Positions 17,301 to 20,300 of a stretch of 64,000 bases of DNA are shown in pieces. The position numbers and the translations under genes were made by a program. This stretch comes from Azospirillum agricola. GTDB lineage: Bacteria; Pseudomonadota; Alphaproteobacteria; Azospirillales; Azospirillaceae. Below the pieces are notes generated by a model. That model searched no databases and was not told the DNA's origin. It saw only the letters and a list, made by a program, of their open reading frames with translations. The number at the start of each line of letters is the position of its first letter. Position 1 is the stretch's first letter. The stretch is taken from assembly GCF_017876095.1 (NCBI RefSeq), contig NZ_JAGINM010000003.1:63491-127490 (forward strand), read 5' to 3'.

Positions 17301-20300
17301 AGCAGGCGGGCCAGCCCGGCGACGGTCGGCGCCTCGAAGAAGCGGCGCAGCGGCACCGAGCGGCCGAACTCCCGCGCCACCCGCGCCAGGATGGCCAGCG
17401 CCTTGAGACTGTGGCCGCCCAGGTCGAAGAAGCTCTCGGTCACGCCCAGCTCGGTCAGCCCGAGCACCGACGACCAGACGGCGGCGACGCGCGCCTCCTC
17501 CGGGGTGCGGGGGGCGACGATCTCGCGACCGCGCACCCGTTCCGCGTCGCCGGCCCGCAGGGCGTCGGCGTCGGCCGGTCCGGCGGGCAGGGCGGCGAAG
17601 AAGGACGGGACATGGTCGGCGGGCAGGCGGGCGCGCAGGAAGGCCGCCAGCACCCCGGCCGGCACCTTGCCGTCGGTGAAGGCGGTCAGGCCGGCCTCCT
17701 CCAGCACCACCACCGCGCGGGTCACCGCCGGGTGTTCGGCGAGGGCGGCCTCGACGGTGCCGAGGTCGATCCAGCCGCGCGCGCCGCGCAGCAGCCGGCC
17801 GGCGCTGCCCAGCACCTCCACCGTGCCGTCGGGGCGAAGGCGGCCCAGCTCGCCGCTGTCCGACCAGCCGCCGCCCATGCGCCGCTCGACCGGCGCCACC
17901 ACGCCGATGGCCGCCGGGGCGCCGAAGCCGTCGAGGGTGCGAATCCCCGATGCCTCCGCCGCCTGGATCGCCTTCTCGTCGGCCGGCGACAGGGGCAGGG
18001 AGCGGAGCGGGGCCTGCGGGTCGGCGGCCGCCCTGTCCAGCAGGGCGACGAGGGAGTCGAACCAGCGGGCGGCGGTGGCGGGTCCGGCCACGGCGGAATC
18101 ATGGTCGAAATCGAACAGCGCCTCGCCGTTCAGCTCCAGAACGTTGAGGAACAGGTCCATCTTGGGATGGGCCACCGGCGGTGACAGCCAGTCCGCCTCC
18201 AGCCCGTCGAAGCCCATCCGCACGCCACGGTCGACGTTGAACAGCACGTTGATCGCCGGCGCCGGCCCGTCGGGCTCGCGGCGGAACAGGCGGCGGATGT
18301 CGCGCTGGGCGGCGGTCAGGTCGGCCTTGACCCGCTGGAGCAGGGCGGCGAAGGACTCGCCGGGATCGAGCGTCACCGCCAGCGGCAGCACCGCCGAGGC
18401 CGCGCCCACCATGTCGGGCATGCCCGCCTCGGTGTGGCCGGCCACCGGCAGGCCGACGGTGAAGCGGCGCTGGTCGGCCAGCCGGCCCAGCAGCAGGGCG
18501 AAGCCGGCGAGCAGGACCATCACCGGGCTGGCGTCCTGCGCCCGCGCCAGCGCCCTGACCCGGCCGTAGAGCGGTCCCGAGGGGCCGGCCGGTTCGCGGC
18601 GGTGGATGCGGCCGCCGCGGAAGGACGGGGTGCGGGCGTGGGCATCCTCGCGCGGCAGCAGCACCGGCGGGGCTGACTCGGCTGCCGGGGCCGGAGGCTG
18701 TTGCGGCAGGGCGGCGCTCCAGGCGACGAAGGCGTCGAAGGGCTGGGCGGGCGGCAGCGCCGCCGGCCGGCCGTGGCGCTCGGCGGCGTAGAGGGCCGAC
18801 AGTTCCGACACCATCAGCCCCAGCGACCAGCCGTCGGCGACGATGTGGTGGACGGTCAGGGCCAGCGCATGGTGGCCGTCGCCGCGCCGCAGCAGGGCGG
18901 CGCGCAGGAGCGGTCCGGCCTTCAGGTCGAAGGGGCGGCCGAGGTCGGCCGCCAGCCACGCCGTCACCGCCGCCGCGTCCGCCACCGGATGCGCCGGCAG
19001 GGGAACCGGGGCCGGCGGGGCGGCGCGCCAACCCTCGCCGTCGAGCGCGGTGGCGCGCAGCGCCGGATGGCGGGCGGCCAGCGCGTCGAGCGCCCGCCGG
19101 AGGGCGGCCACGTCCAGCGGTCCGCGCAGATCCAGCGCCACCATCTCGTTGTAGGCCAGGGTGGCCTCCGGCCGGGACTGGATCAGGAACCACATCTCCT
19201 GCTGGCCGCGCCCCACCGGCATCGGCGTCCGTTCCAGAGCCGGCGCGCCGGCCGGCGCCGCCATGGCGGAGGCTCCGCTGGCGGGCGCGTGCGCGCGTCC
19301 GCCGCCGCGCGGCGGCAGCCAGCCGCCGTCCCGCATCTCCGCCACGCTGCGGCGCACGGCCTCGACGATGAAGGCGATGTCGGCGTCGCTGTGGGCGGTG
19401 GACAGGAAGCAGTTGCGCCCCTCCCACACGAAGACGCCGTTCTTCAGCAGATGGTAGTTGAGGATCTCCGTGTCGGCGGCGAAGTCGAAGCGGAACAGCG
19501 AGCCGAAATGGACGACGCGCACCGGCACCTCCTCGGCCTCGAACAGGGCGTTGAGGTCGGCGGCCATCGCGGCGGTGCGGGCGTTCAGGGTCTGCTGGAG
19601 GCCCGGACCGGCCTCCTTCAGGTGGCGCAGCATGGCCTCGGCCGCGGCCATGGCGAGCGGGTGGTTGTTGAAGGTGCCGGCGACGAAGGCGGTGCGGGCG
19701 CTGGGGGCGCTGTCGTCGCCGTAACGCCACAGGCCGCCGTCCACCGCGTCCATGAAGCGCTTCCTGCCGGCCACCACCCCCACCGGCATCCCGCCGCCGA
19801 CGATCTTGCCGTAGGTGGCGAGGTCGGCGGTGACGCCGAAATGATGCTGCGCCCCGCCGGGATGGATGCGGAAGCCCATGATCATCTCGTCGAAGATCAG
19901 GGCGATGTCCTTGTCCGTGGTCAGGGCGCGCAGTTCGTGCAGGAACTCCCTCGGCTGCACCGCCGGGTCGCGGCTCTGCACCGGCTCGACCAGCACGGCG
20001 GCCAGTTCCCCGGCGTGGGCGCGGATGACGTCGAGCGCCGCCGGGTCGCCGTAGCGCAGCACGATGACGTCGTCCACCATCCGCTGGGGCGTGCCGTCGG
20101 TGACCGGCATGCTGGTCACCCGGCCGCCGTCGGCCCAGCCCACCGCCAGCACCCCGTCGAAGGTGCCGTGGTAGGAGTTGACGAACAGCACGATCTTCGT
20201 CCGGCCGGTGACGGCGCGCGCCAGCCGCACCGCCACCATCACCGCCTCGCTGCCGGTGGTGAAGAAGGCGACGCGCTCGGCTCCGGTCATCTCGGCCAGC

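Follow-up and report, generated by a model that had tools for sequence, protein, structure and literature searches.

A first module with a truncated adenylation domain in a predicted beta-amino-fatty-acid lipopeptide synthetase of Azospirillum agricola

Introduction

Modules of nonribosomal peptide synthetases (NRPSs) that lack an adenylation (A) domain of their own have been described in several systems, and here we analyze one that lies in a stretch of 64,000 nucleotides of the Azospirillum agricola genome (assembly GCF_017876095.1, contig NZ_JAGINM010000003.1, positions 63,491 to 127,490 of the forward strand; hereafter the window), as the first module of a hybrid FAAL/polyketide synthase (PKS)/NRPS megasynthase. 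The closest mechanistic precedent is the Ttm thalassospiramide line of Tistrella mobilis, whose A-less first carrier (T1) is charged by the downstream domains A2 and A3. Likewise, the A-less module CmnI of capreomycin biosynthesis is charged by CmnA-A1, in the fimsbactin pathway the A domain of FbsE is truncated, with FbsF predicted to supply the A domain that loads the FbsE carrier in trans, and module 2 of a Pandoraea lipopeptide NRPS is A-less. In syringomycin biosynthesis, SyrB1 reportedly serves the A-less last module (module 9) of SyrE. Condensation-carrier (C-T) modules served by separately encoded A domains are known from WS9326A (PMC7539972). A second group of related systems is defined by the starter of MycA and PuwE, in which a FAAL-activated fatty acid undergoes one PKS extension and meets an aminotransferase (AmT) domain, after which a C domain couples the beta-amino acyl group to the first residue.

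The window protein shares the starter logic of MycA and PuwE, with the order FAAL-ACP-KS-AT-ACP-AmT-C preserved as far as that C domain, whereas the complete A-T pair that follows it in MycA (Asn) and PuwE (Val) is not there, the A domain having been deleted. Also unlike MycA and PuwE, the line has an integrated AT, a tandem of two C domains and a linked AsnB. With Ttm it has in common a proteobacterial origin, a lipopeptide product, an A-less first module and the lack of a free A domain nearby, although Ttm has no FAAL-PKS-AmT starter for a beta-amino fatty acid. The likeness to FbsE and CmnI lies in the truncated or absent A domain and a carrier that relies on an A domain from elsewhere in the pathway, on another module or another protein, but these belong to siderophore and tuberactinomycin pathways, their loader is on a separate protein, and FbsE has tandem Cy domains. 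The SyrE and WS9326A clusters encode the trans-acting A domain nearby, while neither the window nor the orthologous clusters, as far as these could be seen, have one. The original prediction for this locus, made from the nucleotide sequence alone, had called A-less modules rare, which overstates the case, given that modules with an absent or truncated A domain are documented in several systems and were recurrent among the AmT-type loci fetched in this work. The principle is already known; the cluster itself is uncharacterized and widely distributed in proteobacteria, and our search of the literature, on Azospirillum, on Methylobacterium and on AsnB combined with an aminotransferase domain, turned up no account of it.

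Results

The first NRPS module of the megasynthase consists, as originally predicted, of a C domain and a T domain with a mere relic of an A domain between them. The protein (4902 residues; 11333..26041; all coordinates are positions in the window, on the minus strand unless stated otherwise) is encoded by a single uninterrupted open reading frame with a third-position GC content of 0.94, in a window of 73% GC overall, and its order of Pfam domains is FAAL-ACP-KS-AT-ACP-AmT-C1-Asub*-T1-C2-C3-A2(Thr)-T2-C4, where Asub* stands for the degenerate C-terminal adenylation subdomain. The class-III aminotransferase (residues 1848-2205; 19427..20500; Pfam PF00202, E 5e-56), which is 73-86% identical among orthologues, is predicted to produce the donor that C1 uses, a beta-amino fatty acyl group. 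C1 (residues 2276-2692; 17966..19216) was delimited by Pfam and carries the motif HHIVADGWS, and the peptidyl carrier T1 (residues 2851-2914; 17300..17491; PF00550, E 9e-17) has its phosphopantetheine site at Ser2878 (codon 17408..17410). By Pfam boundaries, the gap from the end of C1 (around residue 2692) to the start of T1 (2851) amounts to 158 residues (nucleotides 17492..17965), which is too small, so that an adenylation core of about 400 residues cannot fit. Re-translation did not bring up the intact motifs that would have refuted the original prediction: a six-frame scan found the A3, A4 and A5 motifs absent from 17.3-18.0 kb in every frame, and over the window the A3, A7, A8 and A10 motifs were confined to the FAAL and to four complete A domains.

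What remains in the gap resembles the C-terminal part of an A domain. With phmmer, the relic alone (residues 2727-2838; 17528..17863) matched 34 solved adenylate-forming enzymes in the PDB, each time at the C-terminal subdomain, the best match being LgrA 566-672 (E 1.7e-9), and the relic together with T1 is colinear with LgrA 566-768. In BLASTP, the relic was 33% identical over 104 residues to the C-terminal subdomain of the A2 domain of its own protein (E 9e-8), while the match to Pfam AMP-binding_C was weak and under the cut-off (E 0.077). The fold of this subdomain is predicted to be kept: an AlphaFold model of the relic plus T1 (mean pLDDT 83.7) resembles the subdomain-carrier units of LgrA, EntF and SrfA-C with probability 1.0, with the caveat that the alignment fed into the model consisted of ordinary Asub-T proteins. 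The A7-, A8- and A10-like motifs read in this interval beforehand were found in part. The A7-like motif is SDSGE, as against YRTGD in a normal domain, and the A8-like motif is a degenerate version of the normal GRxDxQVKIRGxRIELG; however, the A10 region is deleted, and the catalytic lysine is gone with it, while the orthologues read DGSPDR, DGTHDR or DGTPDT, also without lysine. Judged by the core motifs A3-A5, the A10 lysine and A7/A8, the relic lacks the marks of a functional NRPS adenylation domain.

The deletion junction itself can be read from the translation and the orthologue alignment (residues 2693-2726; 17864..17965). There, the C-A linker runs into a stretch of about 30 residues of the type 'vLD..P.G..GEL', which stands directly before A6. 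The claim that the whole N-terminal core was lost therefore holds for A1-A5, but a short trace of the core survives ahead of A6, and the module is most aptly described as C-Asub*-T, in which a trace of the last strands of the core and the entire C-terminal subdomain are kept.

Seven orthologues, which represent at least five genera, have the C-Asub*-T unit. Methylobacterium sp. EM32, Xanthobacter sp. VTT E-85238, Azospirillum sp. TSH100, Endothiovibrio diazotrophicus, a metagenome-assembled genome (MAG) of Rhizobiales (L086) and a JGI metagenome contig share the order AmT-C1-Asub*-T1-C2-C3-A2(Thr)-T2-C4, then AsnB, then A3 and the following domains, and the distance from the His motif of C1 to the Ser motif of T1 (HH-to-GGHS) is 476-485 residues throughout the loci of this type. 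This bears on the explanation that a sequencing or assembly artefact, either a frameshift or a collapse, conceals a full A domain. The related MAG L086 indeed has a frameshift, though it lies in C2; nevertheless, the reading frame of the window protein is open across all 4902 codons, as had been noted beforehand, the interval falls about 1 kb short of the room needed for an A core, and independent isolate genomes and metagenomes have the same architecture, with eight other loci showing an equal or a shorter arrangement. We consider the chance of such an artefact to be negligible. The frameshift of L086 (L086:5063-5072) divides the megasynthase into two called genes, and the break, seemingly between C2 and C3, had looked like a natural module boundary; this candidate was rejected, since the frameshift lies inside C2 and reflects either an error of assembly or a pseudogene.

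Related loci differ in how much of the relic they keep. In locus L090, it is cut to about 80 residues, the A6-A8 part alone, and in Thiorhodococcus fuscus (L089) there is no relic, a proline-rich linker of about 40 residues joining C1 to T1; both C1 (SHxxxDG) and T1 (SGSSL) are kept in loci of the L090/L089 type, and the relic is dispensable. Among more distant KS-AT-ACP-AmT-C relatives, namely those of cyanobacteria, actinomycetes, Pseudooceanicola and Acidobacteria, an intact A domain stands at this position, and because these relatives have it complete, the loss of the A core is seen as derived. Loci of the L088/L091 type have an intact first A domain by Pfam order (AmT, C, AMP-binding). 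In a low-GC metagenomic line of distant relationship (L097:11150-12040), whose C1 is 31% identical and which lacks an AsnB nearby, the break-points of the relic are as in the window, with DGA replacing NGK at A10, and the protein P0148 has the order AmT-C-T-TE without any A domain. With these two cases, A-less first modules after AmT-C are present in unrelated lineages. In a further metagenomic AmT-type line (L134:7175-8346), some 390 residues that match none of the window-domain queries stand after the C domain, and Asub and T come next; these residues may represent an A core that has diverged very far or has been replaced.

The searches for closer relatives gave little. A homologue search with the relic plus T1 yielded no orthologue, only pieces of ordinary A-T proteins, from a listing seemingly without megasynthases; a metagenome scan seeded on C1 found no sister line closer than 41%; and in the search with AmT-C1 for a sister line with an intact A1, the matches listed were only proteins below 1500 residues. 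Most genome-scan matches at 'residues 7-622', which were candidates for C-short-T modules, were rejected as ordinary Asub-T-C stretches matched out of order.

The original prediction left two fates for this module, loading of the first residue from elsewhere or skipping, and selective constraint helps to tell them apart. When the ratio of nonsynonymous to synonymous substitution rates (dN/dS) was computed for the window against Azospirillum sp. TSH100, C1 (0.29) and T1 (0.30) had values like those of T2 (0.30), C4 (0.33) and the C-terminal subdomain of A2 (0.23), with 0.54 for the relic and 0.88 for the linker between AmT and C1. Across three genera, T1 is 70-73% identical (vs 68-78% for T2) and C1 is 53-62% identical, like C2-C4, while the relic is the least conserved segment (39-50%, vs 71-79% for the subdomain of A2). 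The C1 residues H124, D128, G129, W130 and S131 are invariant in 8/8 aligned sequences, and the serine of T1 is kept in every relative examined, even in those without a relic. Neither the loss of the carrier serine or of the histidine of C, nor neutral evolution of C and T, as would be expected of a skipped or inactive module, was found.

If module 1 were vestigial, the chain would go from ACP2 straight to C2/C3, and C1-Asub*-T1 would be dead weight. The A domain has in fact been destroyed, the relic is decaying, and the thalassospiramide system offers a precedent for module skipping. However, since the catalytic residues are kept and the dN/dS values are like those of working domains, a dead module is disfavoured, and some 560 residues of useless protein are unlikely to persist across several genera at 50-60% identity. 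We regard skipping as improbable; the constraint supports C1 and T1 as a working pair with a weakly constrained spacer between them. In this way, the part of the original claim that the residue comes from elsewhere stood, whereas its alternative of a skipped module did not fare well.

Discussion

With a conserved C and T and more carriers than A domains (five peptidyl T domains vs four amino-acid A domains in the window), the module carries the sequence-level marks of an A-less, non-linear module, and the question becomes which A domain charges T1. We consider it probable, from these features and from analogy with the described systems, that it is a working non-linear module in an iturin/mycosubtilin-like line whose T1 is charged by an A domain of the line itself. 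An old in-frame deletion would have taken the adenylation core A1-A5 and fused the C-A linker to a catalytically dead C-terminal subdomain, which would persist as a spacer ahead of T1. The carrier would then be aminoacylated by the A domain of another module in the same assembly line, the first candidate being A2 (Thr), ranked so because it is on the same polypeptide, as the next complete module, and the next being A3, N-terminal on the second synthetase (NRPS2), and A5 (Asp). C1 would take the beta-amino fatty acyl chain of ACP2 and couple it to the residue on T1, and the chain would move via C2/C3 to the Thr on T2, so that the expected product would be a beta-amino fatty acid with five residues and not four.

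The specificity codes on which these candidates rest come from alignments to positions that were anchored by hand. A2 is a complete adenylation domain (13115..14554) by Pfam and motif scan, and its code is DFWNIGMVHK (Thr). The code of A3, DVRHLALLAK, is identical in seven orthologues and is DVRHFALLAK in Thiorhodococcus. A4 has an aromatic-type code (DAATIAAVC-) and is interrupted by a methyltransferase, and A5 has an Asp code (DLTKLGHIGK). The D-x-R-H pattern of A3 (8100-9325) resembles the McyE-like code DPRHSGVVGK of locus L013. This McyE-like code stands for an iso-linked acidic residue.

Several points weigh against charging by a domain of the line. The identity of the loader is purely inferred, and a comparison of the relic with the C-terminal subdomains of A2, A3, A4 and A5 plus outgroups found no clear nearest neighbour and singled out neither a parent nor a partner. 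Two condensation domains, about 900 residues, separate A2 from T1, and their conservation as a tandem could mean a less conventional role for T1. In the distant line L097, the A-less module precedes an A domain of the Gly type and not of the Thr type, and no general rule can be drawn. Finally, the analysis covered 64 kb of the genome, and an unlinked stand-alone A domain may lie elsewhere.

This last point corresponds to the alternative in which the loader of T1 acts in trans, as a stand-alone A domain or as an A-T protein with a shuttle, and is encoded elsewhere in the genome. The search for a free A domain or an MbtH gene, which had been proposed as a check, found none in the 64-kb window, so that one may lie elsewhere, and trans-acting A domains are documented, as in WS9326A (PMC7539972). 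On the other hand, a dedicated partner of this kind is usually clustered, and in Azospirillum sp. TSH100, Endothiovibrio, the JGI contig and L090, which have the same gene set, the 10 kb downstream of AsnB contain no free A domain in the partial contexts seen. Taken together, these observations make a trans-acting loader rather unlikely, and charging by a domain of the line, with A2 as the first candidate, continues to be the preferred reading.

The tandem C2-C3 between T1 and A2 (14642-17245) is conserved in all orthologues of the window type, including Thiorhodococcus. C2 (15962..17245), the first of the tandem, is by Pfam and motif reading a canonical condensation domain with the motif HHAIGDVWS. 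We tried it as a disguised epimerization domain, which would have given the order C-A-T-E-C; this was rejected on its C-type N-terminal and C5 motifs and full-length coverage by Pfam Condensation. By motif reading, C3 (14642..15859) is a divergent condensation-like domain directly upstream of A2, with motifs such as HHALADPASL and HHGIADKASL in the orthologues; none of about 266 C-like regions of the fetched loci is closely related to it, and its PDB matches are generic C-domain matches only.

The gene next to the megasynthase had been put forward as an obvious candidate for the loading partner. It encodes a glutamine-dependent asparagine synthase of the AsnB type (643 residues; 9396..11327), begins 5 nucleotides past the megasynthase stop, has GATase and Asn_synthase domains by Pfam and no extra domain, keeps the N-terminal Cys nucleophile (MCGILG), and scores as an ordinary glutamine-hydrolysing asparagine synthase (457.6 bits against the TIGR01536 equivalog, cut-off 267.1). 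It is 98% identical to an Azospirillum agricola protein, with 57-98% identity in its clade, which includes Azospirillum, Methylobacterium, Xanthobacter, Endothiovibrio, Methylobacter, Inquilinus, Thiorhodococcus and metagenomes. Members of this clade adjoin a megasynthase of the KS-AT-ACP-AmT-C type in 11/11 contexts (L001, L002 and nine looked up), usually directly after its last gene. However, the co-occurrence is not restricted to A-less lines, as would be expected of a dedicated partner: in Methylobacter oryzae (L087), where the first A domain is intact and Thr-like, the order is AmT-C, A(DMWNTGMVHK)-T-E-C, AsnB, and the L091 type, with a first A domain that is intact by Pfam order (AmT, C, AMP-binding), also has AsnB. 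Because AsnB is found in lines with an intact first A domain, it is linked to the family of assembly lines and not to the loss of A, and the evidence points to a part of the pathway family, in the supply of a precursor or amino donor, in tailoring or in amidation, and not to a loader.

A functional link of AsnB to T1 can still be imagined, in which it supplies the residue itself or amidates an Asp loaded on T1 by A5, giving an iturin-like beta-amino-acyl-Asn start. The distance of 5 nucleotides between the genes and the constant neighbourhood of the clade with AmT-type synthetases fit this idea, and so do the facts that the first residue added by mycosubtilin MycA is Asn and that an Asn-specific A domain is absent among the codes read. 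Against it stand the occurrence of AsnB with an intact first A domain in L087 and L091, its ordinary TIGR01536-type make-up and its chemistry, in which a side-chain carboxylate is activated for attack by ammonia and for which no precedent of thioester formation on a carrier is known. We know of no AsnB-family enzyme that acylates a carrier-protein thiol, and on-carrier amidation is speculation. We hold a partnership of this kind to be very improbable. Similarly, AmT-C-Asub*-T may be thought of not as a decayed module but as a conserved, specialized starter cassette whose unconventional charging is tied to AsnB, its strictly co-inherited neighbour, with Asp delivered by A5 turned into Asn on T1 and with C2-C3, which might process the intermediate, as further parts. 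The same deletion break-points occur in the distant low-GC line L097. We rate this possibility a long shot. If it were true, on-carrier amidation analogous to tRNA-dependent Asn synthesis would be a new NRPS route to residue diversification.

The megasynthase has further genes on both sides. NRPS2 (1820..9325), by Pfam and code reading, is composed of A3(DVRHLALLAK)-T-C5-A4(methyltransferase-interrupted)-T-E. The methyltransferase is inserted within the C-terminal subdomain of A4 (4000-5000), and the module, which ends in the epimerization domain, is predicted to give a methylated D-aromatic residue. A cyclic-peptide export ABC transporter (112..1752; TIGR01194, 327.7 bits vs a cut-off of 286.2) follows at the edge of the window. 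On the other side of the megasynthase, there are a beta-lactamase-fold autotransporter, a DUF697 gene, an SPFH protein, an outer-membrane barrel, NRPS3 and a TauD-family protein. NRPS3 (34123..38148, plus strand) is the termination module, C-A5(DLTKLGHIGK, Asp)-T-TE, by Pfam and code reading, and the TauD-family dioxygenase (38192..39160; Pfam PF02668, E 3e-40) is inferred to be a probable beta-hydroxylase of a carrier-bound residue. The genes past TauD are of housekeeping types (NagZ-like, CreD-like and a two-component system).

The autotransporter gene (26812-30234, plus strand), divergent from the megasynthase, combines a PF00144 serine beta-lactamase/D-aminopeptidase fold with an autotransporter barrel, and PF00144 genes recur beside the related clusters L085, L086, L088 and L091. 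This combination recalls prodrug-activating peptidases of the ClbP type or self-resistance enzymes. Between the two divergent genes there is a gap of 0.77 kb (26041-26812) of low GC (0.57 at 26-28 kb vs about 0.73), which is probably a shared promoter region. A second autotransporter, with an S8 subtilase passenger (45726-48674, plus strand), adjoins the CreBC-like two-component system and the CreD-like gene, and it probably lies outside the cluster. The autotransporters and the GC content of 73% accord with a Gram-negative bacterium.

The locus is a predicted cluster for a beta-amino-fatty-acid lipopeptide, conserved in Azospirillum, Methylobacterium, Xanthobacter, Endothiovibrio and Thiorhodococcus, with AsnB, the beta-lactamase-fold autotransporter, the tandem C-C and the A3 code DVRHLALLAK as accessories of interest. 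Its first module, together with those of its relatives, forms a natural series that runs from an intact A domain (sister lines) to a full relic of the C-terminal subdomain (the window), half of it (L090) and none (Thiorhodococcus, L089). Such a series suits two questions of NRPS engineering, namely what length of A-T linker region a carrier needs to serve a C domain and how A domains may be shared between modules.

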